34,560 nucleotides of DNA from a virus. The notes beneath the pieces are model-generated. The model was not told where the DNA came from, did no database searches, and saw only the letters and a list, made by a program, of their open reading frames with translations. Position numbers and translations under genes: made by a program. The stretch lies in UHGV virus genome UHGV-0119120, one strand, 5' to 3'. Each line of letters begins with the position of its first letter. Positions within the stretch are counted from its first letter, which is position 1. Below, piece after piece: positions 12,931-33,846 of the stretch.

Positions 12931-13872
12931 TCAGATACCGTCCACGTAGGACAGGGTTTCTTTGTACACTGGCTCAACCGCACCGAGCTTGCCGTAGTAG
13001 GTCGCAATCTGATACAGACCGCGATACTGGACAGGAACGCTCTGCAACGGCACCAGCGGATAGCGCACGTATTTCTTGTCGTTGGTGTAGGCGATCATAC
13101 GGTCTTTACCGCCAACCCCACGCCCTTTCAGCCATTTGACCGCTTTGATTTCAAGCGGAACGCCGTTCTGGTGGAAAGCGATAGTGTTCACAGCCAGATA
13201 GGTCAGCAGTGACTGGTTACCCGCTTCGGAAACCTTACGGCTCGCCAGCAGTGAATACTGCTCTGGCGGAATGCGCAGATCAGAAGGCACGATGGAATAA
13301 CCGGATGCTGCCCAGGCATTAGACAGAATGCTGTTCACGCTATCGAGGATCTCGTCGTTGGTTGAGTTCGCCCAGGTCTTCGGCGCATTGTTCAGCGTCA
13401 CACCGACAAGGTTTGCCAGCCCTTTCAGGCCGAGCGCATCATCGCCGATGTAAACCTGCTCGTCGTTATCCATCTGCCATTTGAGCTGCATCCCGTCGTA
13501 CTTCTGGGTATCAATCGGGCGACCTACCTGCTGAGCTGCTGCCAGCTCTACAACGGTCCAGCCCAGTTCCATACCCCAGAGGTTCAGTGGATTGCCGTCT
13601 TTGCTGATATCCACGTTCACGCCAGCAATAGCGGTGGAGTCTTTGCCTACCCAGTTTTTACCATTCGGATTTGCGCCAGTACCAGCAGCGCCAAAACTGG
13701 TGTTAGTCCAGCTGGAAATGTCATCTGCGATAGAAACGTCTTCACGCAGCTGAATATCGCGGGTCCAGGTGTAACCCACCAGCGGCAGGTTCAGCGTCTG
13801 GTCGAGTCGCTCCAGCTCCCCGATGAGAAAGGCACCAGAGCTATCAACGGTTGCCTGATCAAAAGTAATCAT
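12931..13872 (-). CDS. major capsid protein (DUF2184-like, HK97 fold family)
   Basis: 313 aa ORF in the canonical position after the small head protein; sequence character matches myophage major capsid proteins. Confidence 0.65.
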   Translation of the reverse strand: MITFDQATVDSSGAFLIGELERLDQTLNLPLVGYTWTRDIQLREDVSIADDISSWTNTSFGAAGTGANPNGKNWVGKDSTAIAGVNVDISKDGNPLNLWGMELGWTVVELAAAQQVGRPIDTQKYDGMQLKWQMDNDEQVYIGDDALGLKGLANLVGVTLNNAPKTWANSTNDEILDSVNSILSNAWAASGYSIVPSDLRIPPEQYSLLASRKVSEAGNQSLLTYLAVNTIAFHQNGVPLEIKAVKWLKGRGVGGKDRMIAYTNDKKYVRYPLVPLQSVPVQYRGLYQIATYYGKLGAVEPVYKETLSYVDGI

Positions 13873-13883
13873 TCGTCTGTTCC

Positions 13884-14366
13884 TTAAATCTTCCAGGAGA
13901 TTTCTGCATTGCCGTTAGCGTCACCGGCCCCTGTGAATTCGGCGTTGGTCAGCGCCACGTTTTTGCCACTGACGGACGTGGACATGAAGCCGCCCAGCGG
14001 CACTTTGATGGATTCATCAGTGGAGACGACAACGTATACCGGGTCGCCTTTTTTGATGGTGCTGGCATCAAAATCAGAACCGAGATTAACGGTCATGTAG
14101 CCACGCTTCATGGCGTCACCCGGGAAGTTCTTATCCGTCCCCACCTGGCGAACCATGTCTGGCTGCGATGTGGTCGGATACGGACGAACGTAGATCCCCT
14201 TCACCTTGTCGGCGGTGTCACCGTCCGCCAGCGGCACGAAAAAGCCGTCAGCGTCATATTTGCCAGCCAGACCATAGGCAGCGAAGGCGTTAGCGGATTT
14301 AAGGATCACCGGTTCGACGGTTAAGTCCTGCGGGCGAGAGATAGCCCCGGCAATGCCAACAGGCAT
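13884..14366 (-). CDS. head structural protein (DUF2190-like)
   Basis: 160 aa ORF immediately upstream of the capsid gene; first morphogenesis gene after the island. Confidence 0.5.
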   Translation of the reverse strand: MPVGIAGAISRPQDLTVEPVILKSANAFAAYGLAGKYDADGFFVPLADGDTADKVKGIYVRPYPTTSQPDMVRQVGTDKNFPGDAMKRGYMTVNLGSDFDASTIKKGDPVYVVVSTDESIKVPLGGFMSTSVSGKNVALTNAEFTGAGDANGNAEISWKI

Positions 14367-14507
14367 CCGGTACAGGAATGCAAGGCTATTATTTAATCAC
14401 CTGAAATATAAGGATTTATTTGCAGTCTGATTTTGCGTGTAGTCCAAAAACTGCTCTGTGATGTATGGCGCTGAATGGGGTAAGTTACTCAATACCAGAT
14501 GTGACAT

Positions 14508-14756
14508 TTAGCGGCACATCATCCGGTAGCGCTCACCTGACGTTCTGGGATCCTCGAATTTTGATTCTAACTGGTGTACTGGCGGAGAATAGCAACCGCT
14601 GGAAACCATATTGGCGATATCTGCCGGGCTGCGGGGGTCGTCATACAGCATAATTAACGCTTCTGCGATTTCTTTGGTGCTAGCCTCCACGCTTAAAGGT
14701 TTAGTCTTAGCCATGACTTTCTCCAGTGCGATGATGCGTTTTATCCGTTCATTCAT
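14508..14756 (-). CDS. hypothetical small protein
   Basis: 82 aa ORF; its ATG overlaps the stop of the DUF5681-like gene (ATGAATGA). Confidence 0.35.
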   Translation of the reverse strand: MNERIKRIIALEKVMAKTKPLSVEASTKEIAEALIMLYDDPRSPADIANMVSSGCYSPPVHQLESKFEDPRTSGERYRMMCR

Positions 14757-15183
14757 TATGTTCTCCTTCCAGACGGGCTATGCGTTCTTCTAGCTCAGTT
14801 ATTTCAATGACTTTCATCATGCTGGCTAGCCCATCAAGTATAACCTTACCTTGATCTGCTGATAACGTCCCAGCGGCTATAGCTTTCATCACCGAACGGG
14901 CCAGCGACTGTGGGTCTGAGTCATCGAGATCAAAGGGCGTTGGAGGCAATATTGGTTTGCTTGGCGGGACAATGCGATCGAGGATGATTCTGCACGCTGC
15001 CATATCGCCTTTTCTGGCTTTTTTTAGAATGGCATCCGCTGCATCCTCCGCCCCCTCCGCCAGAAGGTTACGCAATTCAGTAGCTGTTTTTGGTCTACCT
15101 CCGGGATTCCCGCTATTCCCCTTAGCAAACTGGCCGCGCTTATTCCGTGTTACCTGTTTTTGCCTGTTCTCAGGTGCTGCCAT
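14749..15183 (-). CDS. DUF5681-like phage protein
   Basis: 144 aa; N-terminal KRGQFAKGNSGNPGGRPK motif characteristic of DUF5681; coiled-coil C-terminus. Confidence 0.5.
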   Translation of the reverse strand: MAAPENRQKQVTRNKRGQFAKGNSGNPGGRPKTATELRNLLAEGAEDAADAILKKARKGDMAACRIILDRIVPPSKPILPPTPFDLDDSDPQSLARSVMKAIAAGTLSADQGKVILDGLASMMKVIEITELEERIARLEGEHNE

Positions 15184-15228
15184 TATTAATCACCTTCAAT
15201 AAGTTACAGATCCTCTCATGGGTAGCTA

Positions 15229-15801
15229 TCACTCTCTCTCCAGATCCTCAAGAGAGCAGCAAATATGCTGTGTTGAAACAAAATAGCTCAGCATGCTGCT
15301 TACCTTGTTTGACGCGACGTAATTATAATGCTCGACCATCTTTGCTAACGCGATAATCTCCCACCAGTAATGCTTAACTAGCTTTAGCGAAATTAAATAA
15401 GCCCGGCTATAGAGCTTGTCGCAATCATCTCCTGTTGCGCCTTGGTTCCTGTATTGCTCAAGCACTTTCCGAATATCGCTGGCGTCTCCTTTCCCTCCAT
15501 TTTCCAGTAGTTTTTCAGGTGGTTCGCCTGAGTAAAGGTGTTGTGCCATTACGCCAGAAAAAGAGACGACCATCTGCGCCAGTTCATCTTTTCTGACGGG
15601 GAGATGTGAGCATACCGCCCGGCAATTATCGACCTCTTTGCCGTTAGCCAGTCGAGCAATACGAAACTCATCAGCAATAGATATCTCAATTTGCCTAGCA
15701 CCCGTAAACCACGCAGCCATCGCGTGACCGGCTTCATGGATCGCGATATTTCTGTCCCACATAGGGCTTTTGCTGAATTCAACAATTACGCCATCACTCA
15801 C
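15229..15801 (-). CDS. standalone zinc-metalloprotease domain protein, FtsH (peptidase M41)-like, no AAA+ module
   Basis: 190 aa; AIHEAGHAMAAW matches the FtsH catalytic HEAGHA zinc-binding motif; downstream KDELAQMVVSFSGVMAQHLYSG and GDASDIRKV parallel the FtsH SRQKLESQISTLYGGRLAEEIIYG and ASNDIKVAT segments. No Walker motifs. Confidence 0.5.
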   Translation of the reverse strand: MSDGVIVEFSKSPMWDRNIAIHEAGHAMAAWFTGARQIEISIADEFRIARLANGKEVDNCRAVCSHLPVRKDELAQMVVSFSGVMAQHLYSGEPPEKLLENGGKGDASDIRKVLEQYRNQGATGDDCDKLYSRAYLISLKLVKHYWWEIIALAKMVEHYNYVASNKVSSMLSYFVSTQHICCSLEDLERE

Positions 15802-15863
15802 GCTGCTTACTCTCCGTTAGATCTGTCATTTAGTTAAATTTAACTGCGTTGGGGGAGTCTCCA

Positions 15864-16040
15864 TCACACACTCCCTTCAACGGCCATTGATTCCAGCGCC
15901 TTAGCCACCAGCCCACGTGCAATTTGGTGGATAGACGGCGCTACGCCAATATCGGAGCGCTGGCGTTCGCGCTCCTGGATCTTGCAGATTGCGGCGAACT
16001 GGTCGCCAGAGAGTAATACCGGCTTAACGTTTGGCTTTTT
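15864..16040 (-). CDS. hypothetical small basic protein (possible DNA-binding)
   Basis: Likely start MKKPNVKPVLLSGDQ inside the 95 aa track ORF; overlaps the stop of the upstream 64 aa ORF. Confidence 0.3.
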   Translation of the reverse strand, partial: KKPNVKPVLLSGDQFAAICKIQERERQRSDIGVAPSIHQIARGLVAKALESMAVEGSV

Positions 16041-16218
16041 CATCCTGTTCACTCCAGAACTTTGCATTCGCTTCGTTGACTTTTTCCAGATTGCGGCATT
16101 CGTTGTTGAAGTTGTTACGCATCCGCAATTGCTCGGCCTGTTCACGGCCAAAGAGTTTACGCCCGGCGCTTTGCGGGTTTCCTGCTGCTAATTTTGGGTC
16201 ATAAATAGCCATGCTCAT
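16024..16218 (-). CDS. hypothetical small protein
   Basis: 64 aa ORF packed between the 187 aa gene and the next small ORF. Confidence 0.3.
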   Translation of the reverse strand: MSMAIYDPKLAAGNPQSAGRKLFGREQAEQLRMRNNFNNECRNLEKVNEANAKFWSEQDEKAKR

Positions 16219-16224
16219 TGCTCC

Positions 16225-16788
16225 TTACTTCGTGCGATGCCAGAAACTGGCGTTGTCGGTGTTAATGCTGCGAATGGCGTCGCCTGTGGAGAGAATCTTC
16301 GGTGAAACGTTGTTAACTCGCATGTAGTCGCCAACCTGCTCCAGAACGTCGATAGCCTGATCAAGCTGAATCTCTGATAGCGGGGTCGGATGTACCGCAC
16401 TGAATGCCTCAGCGGGTGCGTAACGCAGCACATCAAGCGCAACAAGGCGAGGATCGGTATCAGGAAGGGCATTGTCATACTTTGGCGCTACAGCGCGTAC
16501 CAGGCGCATAAATTCAGCGTCCATTGACGTTGGCGCGGTGGAGGTCGTGGAAGCGCCGCTGCCACTGCGAGTAATCATGTCACTATCGCGGGTGTACATC
16601 CGACGCAGGCGGTCGCCAGTTGCAATGCGTGTTGCACGTTCCTGCTTAAGCGTCGTTGCAAGATTCGCAATGACGAGAGCCACAGGAAGCGAGCAGGTCA
16701 GCCTTTCGAACGTATCATCGGAGTAAGTCACCTCGACGGTACCACCAGCGTTATCACTTTCCAGATTAACATTGGTTATCTGTTTCAT
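16225..16788 (-). CDS. hypothetical protein, first gene of the island accessory module
   Basis: 187 aa ORF with AAGG RBS; preceded by a palindromic operator-like region. Confidence 0.45.
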   Translation of the reverse strand: MKQITNVNLESDNAGGTVEVTYSDDTFERLTCSLPVALVIANLATTLKQERATRIATGDRLRRMYTRDSDMITRSGSGASTTSTAPTSMDAEFMRLVRAVAPKYDNALPDTDPRLVALDVLRYAPAEAFSAVHPTPLSEIQLDQAIDVLEQVGDYMRVNNVSPKILSTGDAIRSINTDNASFWHRTK

Positions 16789-16823
16789 TGTTCATAACCT
16801 TTTGCGTTGTTTAAATTCTAATC

Positions 16824-16840
16824 ATTGCATAAATTGCAAT
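16824..16840. promoter_or_regulatory. perfect 17-bp palindrome ATTGCATAAATTGCAAT (candidate operator)
   Basis: Read directly; lies about 40-60 bp upstream of the 187 aa gene start, with a related half-site ATCATTGCG at 16851-16859. Confidence 0.35.
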
Positions 16841-16938
16841 GTTAGTAAATATCATTGCGTATATTGAAATGATAAATCGACGTGATACTATGACGGTGAT
16901 CCACCATTGTGTGATTGCATAAACATGGTTAACAAAAG

Positions 16939-16973
16939 CCCTCGCCTCTCCAGCGCGGGCTTTTTCTTTTCCG
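16939..16973. terminator. hairpin with flanking T/A runs (candidate bidirectional terminator between origin and accessory operon)
   Basis: AGCCCTCGC-CTCTCCA-GCGCGGGCT stem-loop (8/9 bp) followed by TTTTTCTTTT on the plus strand and preceded by AAAA. Confidence 0.4.
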
Positions 16974-17072
16974 CTCCGCAAAGTTGCCGTTTCCGCATAC
17001 TGTCGCTTAGGCGATGCCCCTCCAAATTCGTAATTACTCTCCGAAAAAAACTCTATAGATAAACAAAAACAT

Positions 17073-17365
17073 GTTGGTTCAGTTGGTTCAGTTGGTTCAA
17101 TTTGTAAAGATTGTTGTTTTATAAGGATTATTTCTTTCGGAGTGAACCAACAAAGCCCCATTTTGAACCAACAAACGCTATTTTCGTGTTGGTTCAGTGG
17201 GAAAGATTTACAGGCCAGCCAGAAAAGGGCGTTGGTTCAATAGCGGCATTTGTTGGTTCAAAATGGGGCTTTGTTGGTTCGGTGTTGGTTCACTTACAAG
17301 CATGTAAATGCATTAAATACATACACTTATATTAATTAAATAGTTACTGAACCAACTGAACCAAC
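17073..17365. repeat. iteron array, putative origin of replication
   Basis: At least 11 copies of GTTGGTTCA / TGAACCAAC, including three tandem copies at 17073-17099. A 29-bp perfect inverted repeat GAACCAACAAAGCCCCATTTTGAACCAAC sits at 17145-17173 and 17252-17280, with an AT-rich stretch at about 17300-17345. Directly downstream of the primase-helicase stop. Confidence 0.6.
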
Positions 17366-17390
17366 AAAAAAACATCTCGTATGTGTGTTT

Positions 17391-20171
17391 TTATTCTTCA
17401 CCCTCTATCTCGTCGGGTCGTAGCTGGAGCACATAAACGTTTATCTGGCGTCCATCAATTCGCGGGGATTTACGCTGATACCCCCTTCCGCTGGCTGGCG
17501 GTTTCAGCACCCCAGCCCCGGCCAGCACACGGGCAAACTGTTTCGCGTTGAATCCCTTCGCAATCTCACCTTCGAATGCTGCCGGGAACGTGTAGAACAC
17601 TATCGGATCAGCATCATGCGCCCCTTTCTGACGGTACCCGGCCAAATCCCGAATCGGCATGTCAGCCGGGTCATAAGGGTAAGGTGCAAATCGGCTCAGT
17701 CCGTATGCATTAAGAAACGCCTCTGCCTGCTCGATGATCTGCTTATGCTCACGGTTCCCCGTGCCAAACTCTTTCACCCAGGCGTTAAAGCCATGCTGGA
17801 TGGCGTCCCGGCTTTCCTGCTCCCCCCAGCCAGTGACAGGCATCCCCAGCACCAGCGCCGCCTCCAGAATAGCGAACCGCTCGCCTACACGATGAACCTG
17901 TTCGCCATAATCAGCAGGGATAAGACTACGCCAGCGCTCCTGCGCCGCTTTGACAGCTTGTTTTGCCTCCTGCTGGTGGCCTGCAAGCCATTTAATCCAT
18001 TCACGGCCTGCGGCTCCGTGGTTCGTCTGGTAAGCCTCTTTGAGTGCGTCGGCGTGTTGCTTCCCGTTCTGGTACTCATGGTGCGTTACTGATTTCTCCA
18101 TCGGTAAATTAAGCAATCGCACCAGTTGCCCGGCCTTAACTTTCAGCCCACCAGCAGAAAGAAACGTCTCAATGTCCATTTCCCCGGTACTGATCGCCAC
18201 GGTGCGCCAGCGCTTTAACTCACGGTTGCCGCCCTCCTTGGCCCCCTGTAGCTTTCCGGCACCGTTAAACAGCGTGTAAGCAGACGTAGCAACGTCTTTG
18301 GCGCTACTGCCCTGCCCCACTTCATCCAGCGGTAACAGGCTGTCGTTATGCGCTTCCGCTTCGTTGGCGATACCCAGCGCTGTACCGTACCAGGTAAGGC
18401 GCAAGGCATCCGGTTCACCGTATAAACTGCTGGCAATGTTGGCGGTGGTTGTCTTCCCTGCGCTGGACTGCTCGAAAAGATGCACGCCGAACCCGTCAGC
18501 GCCAACAAGCCCGATCAGCGGCGCAGAAAGCGCAGCAGCAACACCCAGCATCATTGACGGGTTTCCCAGCGCAAGACGCGCCACCGAATCACGCCAGCTT
18601 TCCGGCGTTCCACTGACGGTATAGCCACCAGCCGCCGCACTCCGACCACTGAATAACAGCGGTATCTCTGGCTCACCAATAACATCACCATCCGGCATGA
18701 TGTACGCCCCGTTGTGCCAGCCTGTGGTGTGGCTGATCTGCCATTCCTTGCCGCTACCAGTTCGCTGCAGCCAGTCGGCCAGAATTGCCCGCAACGATGG
18801 TTTGGTTGTCACACTGACACCGCCGTTTTTCAGCGTGCGCCATCCCTCACGGTCGCCAATGTCCTCCCATGGAAGCGCACGGGTAACTTGCCCCCGGTTG
18901 CCGGGGACGTCCCAACGCAGGATCAGAAAGCGCTGTCTGGCGTTATCACTCCCCGCACCAGCAATCTCCAGCGGAGAGCATAGCCACGCCTCGGTATTGA
19001 TAATTTCTCCTGTGTCTTTGTCCACTTTCGGGGTGATCCAGTGAATGCCATCCGCACGGCTCTCTACTCGCGGTTTCAGATCGTCGTCGATACCAAGTTT
19101 TTTCTTGCCGCCGTCGATAGCTGTCAGTGTCGCACCCACTTTCTTACCCTCCGGTTGATACATTGAGTCGTTAAATGCTGCTGTGGCCGCTTCGAGGCCG
19201 TATTGCTGGTGGTAGTCGTTCCAGTCCGCTTTATAGTCCACTGGTGGCATGGAAACCCAGCCAGAAACGGCTTTCGCGGCTTTCTCTGCGGCCTCCTTGC
19301 CAGTGTTAACTTTCACTCCTTTAATTCCGTCACTTTCGCCCATCTGGTCGTTATCTGCGGCAATGATGATTTGTGCCTGTGGGTACTTCCGGCGCATCAC
19401 TTCGGCAACGGGTAGCAGGTTGCCCGCGTCAATTGCTGCCACTGCCAGCGCGTCCGGGCGCATCAGGTGAACTGAAAGGGCCGTCGCCAGCCCCTCGGCA
19501 ATTAAAACGCTCTGCGGCGATTCTGGCGCGTTTACGGCATGATATGCCCCGCGCTTTGCTGAACCTGTCAGGAGTCGCTTCTCTCCCTGCGGTGTAATGG
19601 TTTGCGCTGCTGCCACTGCGCCGGATTCGTCCACCAGCTCCAGCAATAACGAACCATCAGGCATAACCGGATAGTTAAACCCGGTCAGCCCTTTTGATTG
19701 CAGGTAATCAGATTCGCCCTGTGTGGCACTCTGGCGCATTCCGGCATACAGACGGGCAAACGTAGCCCTTCGCTGCTCTGCGTCCCCTGCTGCCTGTTTC
19801 TGGCGCTCCTGCTCACGCTGCTGGCGGTCAGCTTCCAGTTGCTCCCTTCTATGGCTCGCTGCCACCGGGTCGGATTGCGCTGCCAGGTAATCAATACCCA
19901 GCACGTCAGCGGCAAGCTGTGCCGCCTCCGTAGTGTCGCAGTTGTTAACCCGCTTGATTAAATCCAGCCCGTCACCAGCGCCACACTGGTTGCAGATAAA
20001 GCTACCGCGCCCGTTGTCGTCGAATCTGAAACGGTCTTTTCCACCACATGCAGGGCATGGAGAATGGCGGCGCGATGAATCAGGCACGTCGATAGACAAC
20101 CCAGCCAGCACATAAGGCCAGCGCCCTGCTGCGGCGCTGGTCACTTCGCGGATAAGGTCGATATTACGCAT
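17391..20171 (-). CDS. primase-helicase (zinc ribbon + Toprim primase + P-loop NTPase)
   Basis: Likely start MRNIDLI with AGGAGG RBS. N-terminal CPACGGKDRFRF...CNQCG zinc ribbon; Toprim-like acidic motifs (LIAEGLATA, IIIAADNDQMGE); Walker A-like SSAGKTT. Confidence 0.8.
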   Translation of the reverse strand: MRNIDLIREVTSAAAGRWPYVLAGLSIDVPDSSRRHSPCPACGGKDRFRFDDNGRGSFICNQCGAGDGLDLIKRVNNCDTTEAAQLAADVLGIDYLAAQSDPVAASHRREQLEADRQQREQERQKQAAGDAEQRRATFARLYAGMRQSATQGESDYLQSKGLTGFNYPVMPDGSLLLELVDESGAVAAAQTITPQGEKRLLTGSAKRGAYHAVNAPESPQSVLIAEGLATALSVHLMRPDALAVAAIDAGNLLPVAEVMRRKYPQAQIIIAADNDQMGESDGIKGVKVNTGKEAAEKAAKAVSGWVSMPPVDYKADWNDYHQQYGLEAATAAFNDSMYQPEGKKVGATLTAIDGGKKKLGIDDDLKPRVESRADGIHWITPKVDKDTGEIINTEAWLCSPLEIAGAGSDNARQRFLILRWDVPGNRGQVTRALPWEDIGDREGWRTLKNGGVSVTTKPSLRAILADWLQRTGSGKEWQISHTTGWHNGAYIMPDGDVIGEPEIPLLFSGRSAAAGGYTVSGTPESWRDSVARLALGNPSMMLGVAAALSAPLIGLVGADGFGVHLFEQSSAGKTTTANIASSLYGEPDALRLTWYGTALGIANEAEAHNDSLLPLDEVGQGSSAKDVATSAYTLFNGAGKLQGAKEGGNRELKRWRTVAISTGEMDIETFLSAGGLKVKAGQLVRLLNLPMEKSVTHHEYQNGKQHADALKEAYQTNHGAAGREWIKWLAGHQQEAKQAVKAAQERWRSLIPADYGEQVHRVGERFAILEAALVLGMPVTGWGEQESRDAIQHGFNAWVKEFGTGNREHKQIIEQAEAFLNAYGLSRFAPYPYDPADMPIRDLAGYRQKGAHDADPIVFYTFPAAFEGEIAKGFNAKQFARVLAGAGVLKPPASGRGYQRKSPRIDGRQINVYVLQLRPDEIEGEE

Positions 20172-20505
20172 GGTTGCCTCCTGCCACGGTCGCGCCCATA
20201 TCATTAATCATGCTTTGCCATATCTCGCGCCCGACGTCAGTCAATCCGTCCTTAGTGACGCAACGATCAAGAAGCTCGATCCCCACGGTTTCCCACTGCG
20301 GGTAGAACACTTTCATGGCTGCCAGTGTGTAGCTATCGATCAGGCTGCGAACGCCTTTTACTCCATTGACGATTTCCACACGGACGGCGAGGCCGTCCGC
20401 ATCAACCATGAAATAGTCCCCGCCGCTGGTGGCGGTAATGTGGTTATACAGTGCCGACGCATACTTATTCGCCAGCGCATTCAGTCGGAAATTTTTAGTA
20501 ATCAT
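20164..20505 (-). CDS. hypothetical protein (replication operon)
   Basis: 113 aa ORF; stop overlaps the primase start (ATGCGTAA). Confidence 0.4.
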   Translation of the reverse strand: MITKNFRLNALANKYASALYNHITATSGGDYFMVDADGLAVRVEIVNGVKGVRSLIDSYTLAAMKVFYPQWETVGIELLDRCVTKDGLTDVGREIWQSMINDMGATVAGGNHA

Positions 20506-20514
20506 GTCGCCCCC

Positions 20515-21141
20515 TCAGTGCGCCAGCGGCATTTCAGGCCAGCCGTTTTCATCCAGTTCAGCTATAAAGCTGTTGTGAAGTTCAGCAAGCGTTTCACGCC
20601 CGAACGGGGTCAGCTCGCCGCGCTCCGTGTCGATCATGGCCTGATAAAAAACAATGGCGTTCGCTGTTCCCTGCTCAACGCCGTAGCGCTCAATCATTGC
20701 GCCCTCGATGTTGTTCGCCATCGCCAGCCGTTCAGCAAACGGGTAAACCACCATGCCCGCATTACCATTGGAGTAAATCGCCACCTGCGATGATGTGCCG
20801 TCAGCCTCAGTAACCGTGGTGGTGCCGTTCTCGCGCTTCATCTCAGAAACGAACGTCGCAGCAATCAGCCAGCGCCACATAGTGACGTTATGCTGCGCGG
20901 TGAAGTCGAACCAGCCACGCTCCCCGCCGTCAGCCACTGCCAAATGCAGGGCAAATCCTTCATCGGTCTTATTGTCATACTCACCCGCATCCAGACGTAC
21001 TACGACTTTTTCGTAGTTGATAAGAGCAACATGCTCATACATTCCGGCATCATTGCGGGTCATGATATTGACGCCGTGCGGTGTGGCTTCGGCGTGGAAC
21101 AGGTCGGGATTTCCCGGTTTAATGGTCAGTATATTGCTCAT
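20515..21141 (-). CDS. hypothetical protein (replication operon)
   Basis: 208 aa ORF, tightly packed in the operon. Confidence 0.45.
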   Translation of the reverse strand: MSNILTIKPGNPDLFHAEATPHGVNIMTRNDAGMYEHVALINYEKVVVRLDAGEYDNKTDEGFALHLAVADGGERGWFDFTAQHNVTMWRWLIAATFVSEMKRENGTTTVTEADGTSSQVAIYSNGNAGMVVYPFAERLAMANNIEGAMIERYGVEQGTANAIVFYQAMIDTERGELTPFGRETLAELHNSFIAELDENGWPEMPLAH

Positions 21142-21359
21142 GCTTTGCCCTCCCGATATTCACGCATTACATGGTCAGCTAGCTTGCTTTCAGCCTCGCT
21201 CATTGCTTCGGGCACACCGTGTAACAGCGTCAGAATGGAACCTATAAGGCGTGGTAAATCGGGATCTGTTTTATTGGTGGTGCTCTCCAGCCACATGGAC
21301 AAAACAGCCTGTGCCTGTTCAATCTGGCAGGCAGCATCAATCAGTTGTAACTGGCTCAT
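21138..21359 (-). CDS. hypothetical small protein
   Basis: 73 aa ORF with 4-nt overlaps to neighbours. Confidence 0.35.
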   Translation of the reverse strand: MSQLQLIDAACQIEQAQAVLSMWLESTTNKTDPDLPRLIGSILTLLHGVPEAMSEAESKLADHVMREYREGKA

Positions 21360-21619
21360 GCGCTGCCCTCCGCATCAATTCTGGCTATATCGACAATCGT
21401 CAGGACTTTACTAAGCCAGCAATACGCGATGGCTGCTTGCTCAACTTCGAGGAGTGGTAATAAATCGGTCATAACGTGAGCCAGCCCATTGCGGGCGCGG
21501 GTCATGCGTTCTGCGGTACGCTCTGCCAGCGTGAAAGAGTCAGGGTACGGCTGTTCGCGGGATAGCATCGCCTCGGCCTCAAGATCTGCAGGATGGCGAT
21601 AGATGGTATGAATGTTCAC
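21356..21619 (-). CDS. hypothetical small protein
   Basis: 87 aa ORF with GTG start, overlapping neighbours. Confidence 0.35.
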   Translation of the reverse strand: MNIHTIYRHPADLEAEAMLSREQPYPDSFTLAERTAERMTRARNGLAHVMTDLLPLLEVEQAAIAYCWLSKVLTIVDIARIDAEGSA

Positions 21620-21795
21620 GCTGCCACCTCCTGAATACGAGTAATACGAACGTGCTTATAACCGCCTTTATTCGCCAGTAGTTGCGCAGTCGATTTAGCT
21701 GTTTCTGGACTGGTGCTAGTCATGGTGTAGTGAATGCCGACGGTGTTACCGCGCTTGTTAACAGCGTATCCGTCGATCTGGAAGGTTTTACGCAT
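21616..21795 (-). CDS. hypothetical small protein (59 aa, below ORF-track cutoff)
   Basis: ATG overlaps the stop of the recombinase gene (AATGCGTAA); translation MRKTFQIDGYAVNKRGNTVGIHYTMTSTSPETAKSTAQLLANKGGYKHVRITRIQEVAA. Confidence 0.3.
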   Translation of the reverse strand: MRKTFQIDGYAVNKRGNTVGIHYTMTSTSPETAKSTAQLLANKGGYKHVRITRIQEVAA

Positions 21796-22666
21796 TTCCG
21801 ACCTCCATTGCTAAACGGGACTGGATAGCTGCCGCTTTACTGCCTAATTGCAGGTAAGTACGAGTTATCGCAGGGTTGCTATGACCCAGCATTTCAGAGG
21901 CCACTAATAGGCCCTGTTCGCCACCTGCGGACATGAGGTTAAAGGCGGCTATTTTGCGGCTTGAGTAGGCGCTCAGGCGCAATTTAGCGTTAATGAAACG
22001 GGTAAACCACGCCATGACGCCATGAAGTTTGCGCCAGATGGTTTGGCGAGTAACGCTACCTTCCAGACGTTGACAACGGTTACTTTCGATTTGAGAGCGG
22101 GAAAATACCAGGTCGTCCTCCACCAGATTCCGATCCTGACGGTCACGCAGCCGCTTGATAATGCCGGGGGGTAACTGTTTGGTGTCGTGCTTGACGTCAG
22201 CCTTAGCCACCAGCCCGAACACAATCGCCTGTTCTTCGTCGTTCATATCGGCGGCCAGTTCATCACAGCCGATACTATCCCACTTCATGTAGGCGATATG
22301 GTCAGCGGCGAGCCGCGCGGCGTCCTTGCGCTGCTGGCGCACAATTTCAATACCTTTGCGGGTTGCCCGCGCTTCTGCGGCTTTGGTCTGTTTGGAAACG
22401 ATAATTGTCGCCTGTCCAGTTTCCCAATTGATGCAGGAATAGCGCAGGTTGCAAACGTCGCTGGTACGCCAGCCGGTTACGGTCGCAATATCCCACCAGA
22501 GCAACACCCAATCGGGCTGTGTCTGCTGGATGCGCTCGCGTAGCTTGCGCTGCTCGTCACGGTCATAGACAGGGGTCATGGTGCGACTGCCCTTTGTGCT
22601 CGCCGCTTTAACGACATTGCCGCGCAGCTCGCGGGCTTTGGCTGTCAGAGTCTGGAGGTTAAACAT
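21788..22666 (-). CDS. tyrosine recombinase / integrase-like protein (second recombinase)
   Basis: Likely start MFNLQTL at 22666; C-terminal LGHSNPAITRTYLQ resembles the His...Tyr catalytic end of tyrosine recombinases; candidate box I Arg in TGWRTSDV. Confidence 0.55.
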   Translation of the reverse strand: MFNLQTLTAKARELRGNVVKAASTKGSRTMTPVYDRDEQRKLRERIQQTQPDWVLLWWDIATVTGWRTSDVCNLRYSCINWETGQATIIVSKQTKAAEARATRKGIEIVRQQRKDAARLAADHIAYMKWDSIGCDELAADMNDEEQAIVFGLVAKADVKHDTKQLPPGIIKRLRDRQDRNLVEDDLVFSRSQIESNRCQRLEGSVTRQTIWRKLHGVMAWFTRFINAKLRLSAYSSRKIAAFNLMSAGGEQGLLVASEMLGHSNPAITRTYLQLGSKAAAIQSRLAMEVGNA

Positions 22667-22847
22667 GACGCACCTCCGGCACTGGCAGACGTGCGGCCAG
22701 AGACAAAATAAAGTGCGGCGCAAGGATGCGGCGGGCTTCGCGTTCGGTCGCAGCCTCAACGGACAGACGGCAAGGTTTGGCTTTTTTATCGTGGCGATTC
22801 AGCGCGAGAAAGCGCCAGGTGAATTTTGAGTGTGCGGATCTAGCCAT
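22659..22847 (-). CDS. small protein upstream of the recombinase (possibly Icd-like)
   Basis: 62 aa ORF; stop overlaps the recombinase ATG (CATGTTTAA); ends ...FILSLAARLPVPE. Family assignment is from memory only. Confidence 0.3.
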   Translation of the reverse strand: MARSAHSKFTWRFLALNRHDKKAKPCRLSVEAATEREARRILAPHFILSLAARLPVPEVRHV

Positions 22848-23167
22848 TTTTAGCGGCTCCTAGAACATATTGAAGGAGTCTCGCCAGATGCTGCTAAACA
22901 TGGGTGGCGAGACGTGACGGGGTTAGCAGACTGGCGTTCTAGGAAACCAGCAGGCGTTAAGCCTCCCCACCACGCCCCGCCATAAATCGGGGGTATGGTT
23001 GGTTTTCGGGCGTAAAAATACCGCTATACGGAAATCAGCGGCTACCCGCTAGAACGTTCAGGCTGCTAAACCCGGCACCCGTTTTGTGAGGTGCGAAATA
23101 ATCATAACCACACTACCCCGTTAAGCGCAAGGGAAATATCCCCTGCGCCCACAATGCAAACTTGTTA

Positions 23168-24238
23168 TTAGTACCCGCGAGAAGCGTAAACTCGTGCCAT
23201 GCCAGCCCAATGAGAGAAAAGAATTTCCCACTTAATTGGGTTGTAGGTAATACTTCCATCGACTGCGGCAGCATTCCATGCCCGATCAGAAATAGAGCTA
23301 TCTTTAGCAGTTTTCCCCCATTCAACAATATCCCTTGCTAAAGCCTGTACACATGCTCGACTGACTACCTTTTCGTCAACGTACGCCCCAACATCAGAGC
23401 ATGACTCCATACTCATGTTCAGGCTATTTTTAAGGGACTCCAGCCCGGCCACTGACATAAAGCGACGACCATTAGCGTATGCAACACCGTCATTCCTGAT
23501 AGTGAACTTAACAGTGTGGAATGCGTCAACAATCATCCGCTGCTCTGGCGTCGGGTTCTGCCATAGCACAAGGTTAATCTCTCTCTCAGAAGCTATTGAT
23601 TCTGCTTTCTCACGCTTAACTCGTGCATCCCGTTCTGCCTGGTATTGTTTTTGATTTTCATCATGAGCCTTTTGGTAACTAGAGGCTAATGCGTCTCTGT
23701 TTTTGGCAAATGCTGCAATGCTATTTTTGAAATCGCTTCTGCTAACCTTGTTTAACCCCATACTCCAGCGGTCATTTTCGTAATCATCATAAATGGCATC
23801 AACTTTTGCCGGATTACTCAGCACAGTCGCCAGATTAACCGGAATTTTAGCCATCTCGTCACTGATTCTCGCTACATGTTCGAAAGTCGATATAGAGCCA
23901 ACTTCATGACTCCCATACTCATGATAAGCGGCATAAAAAATTGGAATAGATTGAGGTTTTTCGTTCACTGACTTAATGATGCTTTTTTCATCACATGACT
24001 GTTCACCCCATTTGAAAACACTTTTCCCACCATTTTTGTATGTGTTGCAATCATCAATACCCAAACGAACCAGCGCATCCCATCCGGGCCGTTTCTTGTA
24101 ATCCTCGCTCTTGACAACATGCATTGTGGTTAGGGCTTTCGCAGGATCTAACTTGCCAGCGGTACAAGACACGATAGGAAAGGCCAGAGAAGCGCAGGCT
24201 GCTATCCTGAAAAGGCTCGTCAATCTTTCTTTTTTCAT
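23168..24238 (-). CDS. lipoprotein, unknown function (island cargo)
   Basis: 356 aa; N-terminal MKKERLTSLFRIAACASLAFPIVSC has a lipobox (IVSC); central Lys/Glu-rich coiled-coil segment; gene is visibly more AT-rich than its flanks. Confidence 0.55.
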   Translation of the reverse strand: MKKERLTSLFRIAACASLAFPIVSCTAGKLDPAKALTTMHVVKSEDYKKRPGWDALVRLGIDDCNTYKNGGKSVFKWGEQSCDEKSIIKSVNEKPQSIPIFYAAYHEYGSHEVGSISTFEHVARISDEMAKIPVNLATVLSNPAKVDAIYDDYENDRWSMGLNKVSRSDFKNSIAAFAKNRDALASSYQKAHDENQKQYQAERDARVKREKAESIASEREINLVLWQNPTPEQRMIVDAFHTVKFTIRNDGVAYANGRRFMSVAGLESLKNSLNMSMESCSDVGAYVDEKVVSRACVQALARDIVEWGKTAKDSSISDRAWNAAAVDGSITYNPIKWEILFSHWAGMARVYASRGY

Positions 24239-24402
24239 CGTCCTAATGCTCTTTCAAACCAAGAATGTAGGACATAGTAAATTGTGGTTAATGGCAAGTC
24301 GATATAAAGGCCGGGTTATTGGCTTCGGTGCCAATATCATTTCTCCGAAATTTCATAACGCCTGTAATCGCTCGTTTCCCCATCTTGGGGACATTTCAAA
24401 AC

Positions 24403-24523
24403 TGCGAATCAAAGTGCGAATGGAACTGCGAATTCGCAAAGAGAGAGCGCCGCTCAAAGCAGGCCGGATAAGGCTTCGCGGACATATTGCGAATGCGAAT
24501 CCACCAGAAACGAAACGCGAATC
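24403..24523. repeat. cluster of TGCGAAT heptamer repeats (candidate operator array)
   Basis: TGCGAAT at 24403, 24415 and 24427 (12-bp phasing), the third within the palindrome TGCGAATTCGCA; further copies at 24488, 24495 (GCGAAT) and 24517 (CGCGAAT). Lies 165-285 bp upstream of the lipoprotein gene. Confidence 0.4.
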
Positions 24524-25079
24524 ACCCATAAACAAAACCGATACGCAGGGAGCGTACTGCCCGTATTCAATCGGCCGAAAAGTCAGCCGATTAAAATCAT
24601 GCCCGGCTATCCCCTGAAATTTCAGGAGATCGAGAGCCACCAGCAGAGAACCGTTCATGCCATCGGTAACTTGCAGCCCGAAGCTCAAATCTGAGCGTTG
24701 ACCGCCAGCCAGAAGAAACCATTTTAAATCCCGCGCCTTCTCTTTGGATGAACAGGGTTACTCCCCGTAATGCTGTGAACTGCCACGATGATTCGGGGTT
24801 GTGTTGCGCTGGCCTTTGAGTCCCGCACAAACACTGACCCACAAAATTTTTGTAGGTGACTGGCCCTCTTGATGAGGTGCTGTTTTGCGTAACCCTTAAT
24901 GAGTTGTGCAAAGGCTCAACCCTTTAAAAGGGTTGCCTAACCACCGGCGATAGTAATAACCGCCAACCTATGAACACTATGAACACCTTTGAGCATTTTT
25001 CTATAAACATTCCACTACTGCCCTATTTGATGCCTTTCTCTGGCTGGCCTGTGTAAGTTACCGTTGCTGGGAACTGACA

Positions 25080-25115
25080 ATAAAAAAGGCTTGCCCCTCT
25101 CAGGTAACAAGCCTT
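25080..25115 (-). terminator. rho-independent terminator downstream of the AlpA-like gene
   Basis: Minus-strand hairpin AAGGCTTG-(14 nt)-CAAGCCTT followed by TTTTTT, about 20 nt after the stop at 25133. Confidence 0.5.
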
Positions 25116-25132
25116 GTCTATCGCTCTGGATC

Positions 25133-25345
25133 TCACTCACTACAGATTCCGCGCTTTTGGCTCTGTCTTCCGATCCACGCCTCCACCTCATCGCGATACC
25201 AGCAATTGCGGCCGCCAACTTTGAAGGGCATCGGAAAGCCGTTCCCCTCATCCTTCAGAAATTCATAGAACGCAGAATCAGAACGGTAGCGTAGACGGGC
25301 TTTAACTTCGACTTTGAGCAAAATATCACTGTTAGATATGGACAT
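25133..25345 (-). CDS. alpA: AlpA-family transcriptional regulator / excisionase-like protein
   Basis: 70 aa; ...GFPMPFKVGGRNCWYRDEVEAWI matches the AlpA helix-turn-helix pattern; GAGG RBS and two TATAAT-like elements upstream. Confidence 0.6.
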   Translation of the reverse strand: MSISNSDILLKVEVKARLRYRSDSAFYEFLKDEGNGFPMPFKVGGRNCWYRDEVEAWIGRQSQKRGICSE

Positions 25346-25400
25346 AAAAACCTCATTATATATTCGATATAATTATATATGATTTGAATAAAAAAAACGC
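25346..25400 (-). promoter_or_regulatory. AT-rich candidate promoter for the AlpA-like gene
   Basis: Minus strand shows TATAAT-like hexamers within 40 nt upstream of the start codon, between the integrase terminator and the gene. Confidence 0.3.
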
Positions 25401-25420
25401 ATTCCGGTTAGCTTTGGGCA

Positions 25421-25446
25421 TAAAAAAAGCTGGCTTAAAGCCAGCT
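25421..25446 (-). terminator. rho-independent terminator downstream of the P4-type integrase
   Basis: Perfect inverted repeat AGCTGGCTT-A-AAGCCAGCT followed on the minus strand by a run of 7 T. Confidence 0.55.
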
Positions 25447-25487
25447 ATACCCGTTTGAAATCATGATTATCCAGAAATGGATGTGCC

Positions 25488-26717
25488 TTACACAACCAGC
25501 CTCAAGCCCTTATCGCCGCTGGTCTCCAGTATTTCGCCACACTCTGCGGCCTCGATAAAGTCCCCCCACCATTGCATTAAAACCCGGCGTTTTTCCAGAT
25601 AGTCGCTACGGTTATAAACATTTCGAATCGCATCGGCGCTTTTGTGAGCGAGTGCAGCCTCAATCACATCAGGGTTGAACCCCTCGTCATTTAAAACTGT
25701 AGATGCCAACGCCCTGAACCCATGAGGAACAATCAGCCCTTTAAACGACGTTTTGTGTATCCCGGCCTGAGTCGCACAGCGTGAGATCGGCTTATTTTCT
25801 TTTCGCCATGAGGGGAAAACATAATCGCAGCGCTTCCACTTTTCGGCCTCTTTAAGCACGTTTATAGCCTGGCTCGATAATGGGACTACGTGGGGGCGCT
25901 TTCCTTTCATCCGGCTTGCAGGGATTTGCCAGATTGAGTTATCAAAATCAATCTCATTCCAGAGAGCGCCGCCAGCCTCCGAAGGCCGGACCATCGTAAT
26001 GATCTGAAATAATAATGCCAGCTTTGATGGCTCCCATAAGCTCAACTCGTTCCATGCGCTTAAAAATTCGGGCAACCGCTCTTTCTGTAAAGTCGCTCTT
26101 GGCTCGTTTTTTTCAGCCGGGAATGCTTTACCAATTTTCGATAGCGGGTTGTGCTCAATAACCCCAATGTTTACCGCATAATCCATTATGGCGTTGATGG
26201 TAATAACCATTTTCGTAAGCGTTGATGGCCTTTCCCTGAAAGGTTTAAAAGCCTGAATAGTATCGGCTGCGTTTATTTTATGTACCGTGGTATGCCTAAA
26301 AATCGTGGAAAGATGCTTCAACGTCACATTGTGCGATTCAAGCGTGTTGCTTCTCGCACCTTCTTTAATCTTGATTTTTAGCCATTCATCGGCAACGGCC
26401 TGAAATGACTGCGCGTACATTTTACGCTGTTCATTCCTGGCATCTTTTTTGACTTCGTTCGGATCTATCCCTCGCGCTACCATACGGCGCAGTTTCGAAC
26501 GTTCCTCCCTCGCTTCGGACAAAGTAAACTCCGGGTATCGTCCAATAGTATAGGTTTGTCTCTTCTTCGTTACCGGGTGTACATACCGAAAACGCCATGA
26601 CTTACCGCCCCGGCTTGTGATGTAAAGCAACAAACCGAAACCATCGTGCAAACTGAAATCCTTGCCCTGTGCCTTCGCGCTTTTCACTTCGACGCTAGTT
26701 AGTGGCCTAACAATCAT
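25488..26717 (-). CDS. int: P4-type tyrosine integrase
   Basis: 409 aa; N-terminal ...LHDGFGLLLYITSRGGKSWRFRY is the typical arm-binding (DUF4102-like) signature of P4-family integrases. Confidence 0.75.
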   Translation of the reverse strand: MIVRPLTSVEVKSAKAQGKDFSLHDGFGLLLYITSRGGKSWRFRYVHPVTKKRQTYTIGRYPEFTLSEAREERSKLRRMVARGIDPNEVKKDARNEQRKMYAQSFQAVADEWLKIKIKEGARSNTLESHNVTLKHLSTIFRHTTVHKINAADTIQAFKPFRERPSTLTKMVITINAIMDYAVNIGVIEHNPLSKIGKAFPAEKNEPRATLQKERLPEFLSAWNELSLWEPSKLALLFQIITMVRPSEAGGALWNEIDFDNSIWQIPASRMKGKRPHVVPLSSQAINVLKEAEKWKRCDYVFPSWRKENKPISRCATQAGIHKTSFKGLIVPHGFRALASTVLNDEGFNPDVIEAALAHKSADAIRNVYNRSDYLEKRRVLMQWWGDFIEAAECGEILETSGDKGLRLVV

Positions 26718-26931
26718 TCAACACCTCTCTGGCTACCATGTAATGCAAACGGCGCATGATTCTCTTTCTAGTCCCTCATGTACCGAATCAAAGCGAAATC
26801 CGGCGAATAAATCCGCACATGTTCGGAGTGTCATTTTTATGGTTCAGGCCAGTAACGCCGTATGATTCCGAACGATAACGCACTGATTAATAGATATTAG
26901 TTGCATAAGGTACAGATATGCAGTCATTGGA

Positions 26932-28164
26932 TTATCCTTTGCGGTTAGACCAGAAGTCGGCGTTTTGTTTGTTCAGGGAAGCGATGCTGGTCATGCCCAT
27001 ATTTGGACGTTGTGCATCGCCCGTGGTGCTGCGGGTGTTTCGCCCTTTGGCAATCTCAGACACGGCGTTAAACGCCATATCGACCGATTGCTTGGGCAAT
27101 TTGCGGATATCTGCATCACCGACAACCTGGCGAACCAGTGTTTTGTCAGCGGCGGACAGCACATCACGTTTGAACGCGGTCGGTTTCACCTTACGGCTCA
27201 GATCGATACCCGGAACGATAACTTCGGCACGATAAGCAGCGTCACCGGTAATCGTGGTTTCCTCTTCGTCGTCCTCACCGTCGCCGGTAGGGTCTTTGTT
27301 ATCTTTGCCGTCAGGCTTATCGTCGTTATCGCCCGTTGCAGTACCTTCCAGCTTAGCCAGCAGGGCTTTGAGCAAGGTTTTGATATCGTCCTCGCCGTCG
27401 CCGGTTGGCTCTCCGCCCATTTCCGGCTTTTTGTCCGGCAATGGTTGCTGCGGTGAAAGGTTAATGTTGAGGTTAACGCCGCTCGGCAGATCCCCTTCGT
27501 CACCCGTTACCGCCGCTGGCGCAGAGTCCAGCAGTTCGTTCATGGTGTCAGCGTCACCCGTTTTGATGGCCGTGCGCATGCGGGTCCACCAGCTTTTCTT
27601 TTGATTTGCCATTGTGTCTCTGTCTCCAATTGCACAACGATTTCCGGCTCTGCCTTTAGGGACAAGAGCCACATGGTTTCCGGTGATATCGACCTGCTCG
27701 GCTTTTCCGGGTTCGGTCTGCTCGTACTCAGCGTCATAGCCGCACGACACTTCGCGCAGACCATCTTCGATCAGCTGAATGGCGCTTTCGTCTTTGACGA
27801 TAAGGTCAGCCAGCATCCAATCAGACTGATCACCTGTCCCGCGCCGAACGTTCTGAAGATGCCCGACCGCAAGCTCTTTCCAGTTCTCGGGGTTGACCAG
27901 CCGCACATTCCCGTTTTCATCTTCAGGATGCAGGATCGTGATGCTCATCCCTTCGAATGAGGCGAGCGTGGCCGGATGGAATACCTGCTCAGGAGAACGC
28001 GTGACGACTATTTCACCGAACTTATCGGGTTTCAGTTTTGGCAGGTCATCAGCACCATAGAGCTGCTTACCTGTTCGTCCTATCGGCACGTCTTTGCACA
28101 GCAACGAGCCGTCAGCCAGCTGATAGCGGGTTTCCCCCAGCCGGGTATTGAAAAAATATTTCAT
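26932..28164 (-). CDS. head scaffold/protease-like protein (DUF2213-like)
   Basis: 410 aa with acidic repeat region (GDGEDD...GDGEDDEEE) typical of scaffolding; follows the minor head protein gene. Confidence 0.5.
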   Translation of the reverse strand: MKYFFNTRLGETRYQLADGSLLCKDVPIGRTGKQLYGADDLPKLKPDKFGEIVVTRSPEQVFHPATLASFEGMSITILHPEDENGNVRLVNPENWKELAVGHLQNVRRGTGDQSDWMLADLIVKDESAIQLIEDGLREVSCGYDAEYEQTEPGKAEQVDITGNHVALVPKGRAGNRCAIGDRDTMANQKKSWWTRMRTAIKTGDADTMNELLDSAPAAVTGDEGDLPSGVNLNINLSPQQPLPDKKPEMGGEPTGDGEDDIKTLLKALLAKLEGTATGDNDDKPDGKDNKDPTGDGEDDEEETTITGDAAYRAEVIVPGIDLSRKVKPTAFKRDVLSAADKTLVRQVVGDADIRKLPKQSVDMAFNAVSEIAKGRNTRSTTGDAQRPNMGMTSIASLNKQNADFWSNRKG

Positions 28165-31892: not shown

Positions 31893-31894
31893 AC

Positions 31895-33648: not shown

Positions 33649-33846
33649 AGCGTCTTTACCTTTTAGAAAGTGAGCCTGTCTCACAGAAAAGCCGCCCGAG
33701 AGAGGTCGCCACCTATAACGGCATTTCTCAGGCTCGCTTACTGAAAGGCTCTCGTTAATATGCGCGTGAGATGCGCGTTTACTGCGGACATAAAAAAGCC
33801 CCGCATCGCGAGGCTCATTAAATGGACTTTGTGATTTGCAAAAAAA

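Follow-up and report, generated by a model that had tools for sequence, protein, structure and literature searches.

The stretch of DNA described here, all 34,560 nucleotides of which we call the window, is the IMG/VR contig IMGVR_UViG_3300045988_056744 (UHGV-0119120), a metagenome assembly. Within it, at 14369-26908 on the minus strand, lies an element of 12,540 bp (one copy of the att core included) that is very probably a satellite of the phage-inducible chromosomal island (PICI) type, integrated by its own P4-type integrase into the cement gene of a SEN34/Omnitron-type phage: a satellite embedded in its helper. An earlier reading of the letters without database searches (the sequence-only reading) had placed a satellite or PICI-like island inside the head operon, and empty sites, recurrent junctions and the satellite gene set all bear it out. 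The insertion is precise, it recurs, and it is absent from most related phages. The configuration itself is known, from the helper-embedded PICIs (HE-PICIs) published by Tommasini, Mageeney & Williams in 2023 (PMC10111431); to judge by its sequence, the present element stands outside the published clade in its integrase, its attP motif, its target site and the family of its helper.

The element does not sit between genes, as had been supposed, but inside one. It lies within codons 5-7 of the cement gene, and splits off the Shine-Dalgarno (SD) sequence, the ATG and the first six codons from the rest. In gene direction, the features at the site are these:

26932-28164, minus strand: DUF2213 head gene of the helper (Pfam), 96% identical to that of Omnitron, directly upstream of the insertion.
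26909-26940, minus strand: orphaned 5' end of the cement gene, with SD sequence AAAGGA (26935-40), ATG (26925-27) and codons 2-6 (M-T-A-Y-L-Y).
26909-26915: attL core, from the sequence; GGTACAG on the plus strand, CTGTACC in the gene direction; extended imperfect repeat 26909-26924.
14369-14375: attR core, likewise from the sequence; extended imperfect repeat 14369-14384.
13884-14368, minus strand: remainder of the helper cement gene, from codon 7 (Pfam Phage_cement/XM1_gp53 minor capsid; open reading frame (ORF) 13884-14366).
12931-13872, minus strand: major capsid gene of the helper (Pfam PF09950).

When the 12,540 bp are deleted together with one copy of CTGTACC, the phage sequence is restored exactly and in frame (MTAYLYRMPVG). 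The same sequence exists in nature. In both Omnitron and SEN34 the stop codon of DUF2213 is followed by TCCA and then by ATGACTGCATATCTGTACCGGATGCCTGTTGGC, the start of the cement gene, and the empty site as a whole, TAA-TCCA-ATGACTGCATATCTGTACCGGATGCCTGTT, is the two halves of the window junction rejoined, base for base. In the window these halves read ...TAATCCAATGACTGCATATCTGTACC|TTATGCAAC... on the DUF2213 side and ...AATAGCCTTGCATTCCTGTACC|GGATGCCTGTTGGC on the cement side; the reconstructed satellite attB is ATGACTGCATATCTGTACCGGATG, and the reconstructed attP is TTGCATTCCTGTACCTTATGCAAC. The orphaned 5' end is identical to the starts of SEN34_6 and of the Omnitron cement gene. The remainder has neither SD sequence nor native start: its first in-frame ATG is that of Met8 (14364-66), and upstream the frame meets a TAA first. 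Because the insertion splits off the 5' end of the gene, the Pfam cement match begins only at profile position 8-9. The attP arm supplies no replacement for the lost 5' end.

Att repeats had been expected at the ends of the insert, and they are there: a perfect core of 7 bp inside an imperfect repeat of 16 nt, identical at 12 of the 16 positions. Two mismatches (AT versus TC) border the core immediately on its 5' side, which places the crossover within CTGTACC; seven base pairs is the usual length of overlap for tyrosine recombinases. A 7-bp repeat is uninformative alone, and it is the empty-site comparison that is decisive. An att site of the tRNA type was ruled out, there being no tRNA in the window, and so were long att repeats, since only the 7-bp core within its 12/16 repeat was found.

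A want of empty-site genomes would have told against an insertion; such genomes were looked for, and they were found, matching to the base, in Omnitron, SEN34 and 335 E. coli. The survey covered 5,426 complete E. coli genomes, of which 339 carry the junction region, 335 of them in uninterrupted form. At precisely this junction, related islands are found in four complete E. coli genomes (ABWA45, ET791, ECONIH5 and EC2001) and in three further IMG/VR contigs. The 26-nt attL junction is exact in eight loci, namely the four E. coli genomes and four IMG/VR contigs including the window, and the 22-nt attR junction is exact in all four E. coli genomes. Among the islands at this junction the att arms and backbone are 90-99% identical while the late zones differ (blastn map), and so these are not clonal copies of one event. 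A single contig scan of GTDB representative genomes turned up no close integrase, the best being 38% identical, and a relative with a different integrase (32% identity) adjoins tRNA-Thr in E. coli G5.

There are indications, too, that such islands recombine at their cores. The reconstructed attP, in which the island end is joined to the island start, is present in two metagenome assemblies. One, IMGVR_UViG_3300045988_113726, comes from the window's own metagenome and runs from 9 kb of a 98%-identical island into the attR-side arm, the core, and then the int-side arm; the junction lies 55 nt from the contig end. The other, OGVK01015064.1 (1,050 bp), has the junction and matches the arms over only 64 and 92 nt. 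A circle, a concatemer and a tandem pair would each give an attP junction, and all of these need site-specific recombination at the core. The metagenome in question, 3300045988, contains three satellite variants with different late zones (contigs 056744, the window; 080056, loci L036/L063; and 113726, loci L060/L064). Contig _080056 is 55.3 kb long, about the size expected of a helper-plus-satellite composite.

The island has modules for integration, immunity RNA and replication, and a late module; their genes all point the same way as the helper late operon, and int is next to attL. Between them they provide the gene set by which Gram-negative PICIs are recognized: int, alpA, primase and ori, in one direction, over some 10-15 kb, without a full structural set, the alpA call resting mainly on similarity to an annotated AlpA (the Pfam match is below cut-off). 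The helper-embedded configuration, as defined in PMC10111431, is likewise present, with an empty site that equals the rejoined junctions and with co-orientation of the island and the late gene it interrupts. From attL to attR, the island comprises:

26718-26908, minus strand: attP P' arm, with candidate arm-type repeats GAATCATNCG x2 (repeat search).
25488-26717, minus strand: satellite integrase, P4 type (Pfam Arm-DNA-bind_3 and Phage_integrase), first gene after attL.
25428-25446, minus strand: terminator-like hairpin and T7 run directly after int (consensus scan only).
25133-25345, minus strand: candidate AlpA-like excisionase/regulator, 70 aa, closely similar to WP_044702604 (PGAP 'AlpA family') of a sister island.
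23168-24238, minus strand: 356-aa protein conserved in sister islands, with no match in Pfam, PHROGs, NCBIfam or PADLOC.
23014-23094, minus strand: isrK-like leader RNA / C4 target region (Rfam RF01394, 44.6 bits, gathering threshold 50, E=4.8e-7).
22900-22987, minus strand: C4-type antisense immunity RNA (Rfam RF01695, 75 bits, gathering threshold 45, E=1.6e-13).
22659-22847, minus strand: Icd-like gene (NCBIfam NF033153, 79.7 bits).
21788-22759, minus strand: second, short tyrosine-recombinase-like gene (Pfam PF00589, E=4.9e-11; phrog_216).
17391-20204, minus strand: primase-helicase (Pfam Zn_Ribbon_Prim, Toprim_3, DUF927).
17073-17365, no strand: iteron origin, 293 bp, an AT-rich stretch surrounded by 11 exact GTTGGTTCA in the two orientations.
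16225-16788, minus strand: 187-aa protein opening the late zone, 66-100% conserved in 11 IMG/VR loci.
15229-15801, minus strand: 190-aa protein with an FtsH-like HEAGHA zinc motif (weak Peptidase_M41/M50B matches on the motif).
14749-15183, minus strand: 144-aa DUF5681 protein, candidate small-terminase-like (Pfam DUF5681, E=7e-11).
14508-14756, minus strand: 82-aa last island gene, with no family match; it pairs with the DUF5681 gene, and the same pair occurs in Klebsiella contexts.
14376-14503, minus strand: attP P arm, 91-99% conserved in all sister islands though the adjoining late zone differs (blastn).

The integrase, whose P4 type had been recognized by the sequence-only reading and is upheld by its two Pfam domains, is 98% identical to that of the ET791 island, and some 45 bp ahead of the int ATG, in the P' arm, stands a GGACTA motif that the clade conserves (aligned int-upstream regions). 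An AlpA-like regulator had been predicted as well. One is present, at 25133-25345, by similarity to an annotated AlpA. The 78-aa ORF at 25015-25251 that had first been taken for it overlaps this candidate, matches no family, and was rejected. The 70-aa gene itself matches Pfam Phage_AlpA at E=0.0065, below the cut-off, and Xis_Gifsy_1 weakly. Farther along, some 277 bp of the window (24614-24889) are absent from the 98%-identical ABWA45 island; they overlap two overlapping TTG-start ORFs without homologues.

The region 22900-23107 has the makings of an RNA immunity module of the P1 immI / P4 CI type, housed within a satellite. The C4 match is full length (model positions 1-87 of 87), and there is a weak c4-a1b1 match at 23055-23107 (Rfam). 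The short recombinase-like gene (~290 aa) comes after icd in every island of the family, whatever the primary integrase or site (homologues in loci L003-L007, L041-L045 and L058-59), and occupies the position of 'ant' in P1 immI; several small genes accompany it, ahead of the primase-helicase. The claim of a primase-helicase with an iteron origin holds, on its Pfam domains and on the 11 exact copies of GTTGGTTCA, where 0.29 are expected and none of 100 shuffles reaches 11. The iteron field sits directly after the primase gene. An ORF at 16811-17161 that overlaps it is probably not a gene: it has no homologues, and is unannotated in the sister islands.

The late zone varies among the islands. 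The 187-aa protein that opens it bears the PGAP label XRE-family in the EC2001 island, and the window copy has no family match. The 190-aa protein shares 21% identity (E=8e-7) with a product of the ABWA45 island annotated 'peptidase M41 family' (L003 8646-9365); these HEAGHA proteins display no other family signal, and may act on helper proteins. We considered whether the M41-like island gene was captured from the 'putative metallopeptidase' gene that the helper carries upstream of TerS, the small terminase subunit, and rejected the idea, the two having no similarity. Homologues of the DUF5681 protein in Vibrio phages lie immediately upstream of, or overlap, the start of the gene for the large subunit, TerL; in Klebsiella, its close homologues are part of the late zones of other islands and do not adjoin TerL. 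At the last, TerS-like position the sister islands have a DUF2280 gene, and that of the ECONIH5 island is 65% identical to its helper's own DUF2280 gene, just upstream of TerL. In some sister islands the late zone further includes baseplate, plug, hub and spike genes of helper type (L006 6780-10015, in EC2001; L063 9100-11020; L043 17318-21230), with 65-70% DNA identity to the window helper's genes at 2.8-5.5 kb, which suggests capture of tail-tip genes that could alter the host range of the particles. PADLOC found no anti-phage defence match among 10 island proteins; some sister islands carry toxin-antitoxin pairs.

Might the island be something other than a satellite—a defence or addiction island, say, or a mobilisable element that simply lands in the prophage and inactivates it—whose integrase happens to target a phage gene? 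Most of its proteins have no assigned function, its packaging by the helper is our inference, the TerS-like assignment is weak, and the toxin-antitoxin pairs of the sister islands would suit such an element. We think it improbable, nonetheless. No defence system was matched by PADLOC; the match to Gram-negative PICIs extends zone by zone, from int-alpA through C4/isrK RNA with icd and primase with ori to the late zone (PMC10111431); sister islands carry a diverged form of the gene at the helper's TerS position together with helper baseplate genes; and co-orientation with the late operon is strict in ten of ten relatives.

Alternatively, the island could be a stranded remnant, a satellite once mobile that became fixed in a defective prophage and no longer excises. 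Many helpers of embedded satellites do look truncated (PMC10111431), the window is a metagenome contig without activity evidence of its own, and the ECONIH5 sister island carries an IS5. We give this a still smaller chance. Int, the AlpA-like gene, the primase and the ori are intact; the two att arms show 91-99% conservation from one host to another; the integrase cluster takes in 77 contigs; late zones differ among copies at the same site, implying repeated, independent integrations; and the attP junction has been observed. That the window is a metagenome assembly lends something to an assembly chimera, which we group with a native phage module and with tandem or rearranged prophages, the alternative that the sequence-only reading had kept in hand. 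All are scarcely credible: four finished E. coli chromosomes have these junctions too, with exact matches over 26 and 22 nt, removal of the insert recreates the intact gene of isolated phages, and the insert, which lacks structural genes, brings an integrase of its own, placed at one end. Tandem or rearranged prophages are excluded by the empty sites and the junctions.

Some points do weigh against a helper-embedded, mobile PICI-type satellite, or against parts of that picture. Induction, the timing of excision, packaging and transfer of this element are all inferred from sequence. The attP junction of contig 113726 could be that of a tandem satellite pair, not of a free circle, and OGVK01015064.1 is weak evidence, rejected as clean proof of a circle, since the rest of the contig is unrelated. 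The promoter and terminator calls are consensus scans, and promoter-like sites are fewer than in shuffled sequence. The DUF5681 gene is TerS-like by position only: its protein has no similarity to the window helper's TerS (Terminase_2), and its AlphaFold model, all-helical with a predicted local distance difference test score of 73, retrieved nothing below E=1 and no solved TerS fold from the PDB by Foldseek, and only uncharacterised or DUF5681 proteins from BFVD. The Q antiterminator invoked below lies outside the window. Finally, a product begun at Met8 of the cement gene might be functional, and the helper's dependence on the satellite's departure may then be mainly a matter of polarity and genome size.

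With PICI-type satellite and helper as we understand them, events might run as follows. In the lysogen the satellite would be silent, its icd-to-primase operon held off by the C4/isrK-type RNA, by analogy with P1 and P4, and it would be copied passively with the prophage. Upon induction of the helper the composite would replicate, and helper late transcription would run on from DUF2213 directly into int. Antitermination is probable, because the helper family carries a Q-type antiterminator (an antitermination gene is annotated in the related ABWA45 helper), and the transcription would pass the hairpin after int and traverse the satellite operons. Int and the AlpA-like protein would then excise the satellite by crossover in CTGTACC. 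Excision should restore the ribosome-binding site, start codon and first codons of the cement gene, and rejoin the capsid and tail genes to their promoter; as things stand, the insertion puts 12.5 kb more between the late promoter and the major capsid gene. The excised circle would replicate from the iteron origin with its own primase-helicase, and be packaged in helper-made particles, probably aided by the gene at the TerS-like position.

At about 54 kb the composite is some 30% larger than the helper alone, which is about 41-42 kb (Omnitron 41.9 kb, SEN34 40.7 kb). It is likely too large for one helper head, and excision is therefore probably required for both partners. A satellite lodged mid-gene would make its helper depend more strongly on excision than this one does, which takes away no more of the cement gene than its ribosome-binding site and first 7 codons. 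That helper capsid production can depend on excision of a satellite is not a new idea; both it and the notions of read-through and regulated gene integrity adopted here were put forward for the HE-PICIs (PMC10111431).

The founder of the HE-PICIs, Eco567.11capE of E. coli NRG857c, sits in a lambda-E-like capsid gene (PMC10111431). When it was induced, quantitative PCR and deep sequencing revealed excision of the composite, then replication of the composite, then excision of the satellite (PMC10111431). The study went on to map another 491 elements, spread over 14 sites in helpers described as lambdoid, and every one was retrieved by way of an integrase that scored 400 bits or more against the founder's (PMC10111431). 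The other papers we found on this configuration only cite PMC10111431. The island of the window resembles these elements in the order of its zones—int/alpA, C4/isrK RNA with icd, primase with ori, and a dynamic late zone into which late genes of the helper have been captured, such genes being seen in sister islands of the window—and in having an attP without replacement sequence, so that the target gene is broken until excision. It differs in other respects. Its integrase is 21% identical to the 11capE Int and scores 68.6 bits, against the cut-off of 400, and none of its 120 best relatives exceeds 119 bits. The published doubled attP motif, TGTATTGC, is absent from the window arms: one-mismatch matches to it number 25 in the window against 30.8 expected, none of them in the arms. 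Nor do the window arms have sites like the doubled tgTGTATTGCantgTGTATTGCa motif, which the published clade has near -81 and +132 relative to the middle of attP. Codons 5-7 of the cement gene are not among the 14 sites, and neither 'cement' nor 'DUF2213', nor CP022154 or CP026202 (two of the four E. coli carriers), occurs in the text or supplements of PMC10111431, the spreadsheet among these being covered in part. The helper is an E217/SEN34-type myovirus, whereas theirs are described as lambdoid; no Bro-N protein was detected in the window island; and the replication protein is of the DUF927 type, not the 11capE primase.

Other systems are instructive in part. Like EcCICFT073 and other Gram-negative PICIs, the island is ~12 kb of unidirectional genes, with int, alpA, and a primase-type gene followed by an iteron ori, and its sister islands have a candidate packaging-redirection gene related to helper genes at the TerS position; classical PICIs reside at chromosomal sites, however, and act on the helper only in trans, and no Rpp/Ppi homologue was identified in the window island. 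With P4 it shares the integrase architecture (Arm-DNA-bind_3), the C4/CI-type immunity RNA and a large primase-helicase, but there are no matches to psu, sid or delta in the window island (Pfam, PHROGs, NCBIfam), its helper is not P2-like, and its site is not a tRNA gene. The C4 antisense RNA followed by an icd-like ORF repeats the order of immI (c4-icd-ant) in P1 and P7, with the differences that the short tyrosine-recombinase-like gene takes the place of ant and that the context is a satellite, not a plasmid prophage. And as with skin in sigK of B. subtilis, or phi10403S in comK of Listeria, an intervening element splits a gene that precise, timed excision restores, except that here the interrupted gene is viral and the switch presumably serves the satellite.

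If the window integrase is so far from that of 11capE, where does it belong? Nine relatives were sampled, 41-63% identical to it (41-100% over the ten members, the window included). All nine reside inside prophage late operons, co-oriented, with int first and no tRNA nearby. With integrase identities in brackets, those placed are:

P0003 (63%), Enterobacter: Baseplate_J codon ~23, in the window's helper family; junction confirmed by comparison with the uninterrupted gene in the window.
P0007 (56%), Raoultella and others: inside the major capsid gene, in the window's helper family; one integrase, three contexts.
P0010 (56%), Citrobacter braakii: just downstream of the TerS gene.
P0042 (47%), E. 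coli: just downstream of the TerS gene, in another phage type than P0010.
P0033 (50%), Salmonella: inside a lambda-A-like terminase gene.
P0037 (51%), E. coli: a gene of a lambdoid head-tail region.
P0055 (44%), Yersinia: 3' end of a lambda-type (lambda-B-like) portal gene.
P0085 (41%), E. coli: after DUF4055 portal, Mu-F and DUF6651 genes.

Their helpers range from lambdoid phages to E217/SEN34-type myoviruses, and their int-proximal arms share motifs while the cores differ. For P0037, five complete genomes are occupied, and there are 70 in which homology stops at the junction. For P0007, the major capsid gene is cut to an ORF of 153 aa, its homology to the window gene being lost after about codon 133. 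In one Raoultella contig with this integrase (FTLF01000008; L042 17672-21230), an acetyltransferase, GntR/aminotransferase and EamA follow a 184-aa protein, not the capsid remainder, which suggests a truncated helper or a deletion on the attR side.

The next relatives (32-34% identity; Acinetobacter, Cupriavidus), distant matches from the GTDB scan that were used as outgroups at tRNA sites, lie about 190 bp after tRNA-Ser or tRNA-Thr genes. In pairwise score to the window integrase, the tRNA-Thr integrase of the G5 island reaches 213 bits versus 69 for 11capE Int, and because the tRNA-targeting enzyme is the closer one, an independent origin of late-gene tropism is suggested, by pairwise scores and not by a rooted phylogeny. 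On balance we lean toward the view that the window integrase marks a second, independently evolved P4-type clade with a tropism for prophage late genes. If that is true, helper embedding would be a convergent strategy of satellites, much broader than the single clade reported. Embedding would turn the helper's replication and late transcription into the satellite's induction signal, and leave the helper unable to complete a virion, or to fit its genome in the head, as long as the satellite stays. In the published study this way of life was linked to one integrase clade in helpers described as lambdoid (PMC10111431); a distant P4-type lineage is now indicated to do likewise in temperate phages with contractile tails, from Escherichia, Citrobacter, Enterobacter, Raoultella and Salmonella, and a single helper family offers it three sites or more. 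Late-gene tropism would thereby be recurrent, not a one-off, and the two lineages offer a natural comparison for what it is in an integrase, or an attP, that predisposes to phage late genes. In practical terms, prophage and satellite finders will mis-call such composites, distorting calls of prophage 'size' and 'intactness'. The finished carrier strains of E. coli are ABWA45 (NZ_CP022154), ET791, ECONIH5 and EC2001.

The helper itself is, by its gene content, a temperate contractile-tailed phage, an E217/SEN34/Omnitron-type myovirus, of which the window presents the late region. Every substantial gene from about 0.3 to 34.3 kb is on the minus strand, including all those between 12.9 and 32.4 kb. 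In gene direction, the right part holds an Rz lysis protein, a Rha-family protein, TerS, TerL, portal, a Mu-F-like protein and DUF2213, and the left part continues with sheath (DUF3383), tube, an SLT-containing tape measure, hub, spike and Baseplate_J genes. TerS matches Terminase_2 and the portal Phage_portal_3 (Pfam); TerL, with no Pfam match, was identified through PHROGs. Compared with Citrobacter phage Omnitron the flanks are 96-98% identical, and compared with Salmonella phage SEN34 (Brunovirus) 89-91%. That the head genes are collinear and co-oriented, about 12.5 kb apart, had been noticed from the sequence, and agrees with the ORF strands and with Pfam matches on both flanks; the gene then labelled 'DUF2190-like' is the one that matches Phage_cement/XM1_gp53 (Pfam). 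Between the lysis genes and TerS, at 33130-33684, the Rha-family regulatory protein has an ORF11CD3 domain. The terminase module of the helper family is a mosaic (helpers in loci L003-L006 compared with window 30270-32446): TerS may be Terminase_2, DUF2280 or an unannotated 251-aa protein, and TerL is of either a 540-aa type or the PBSX type. The gene that the satellites carry at the TerS position is often of another type than the resident helper's.

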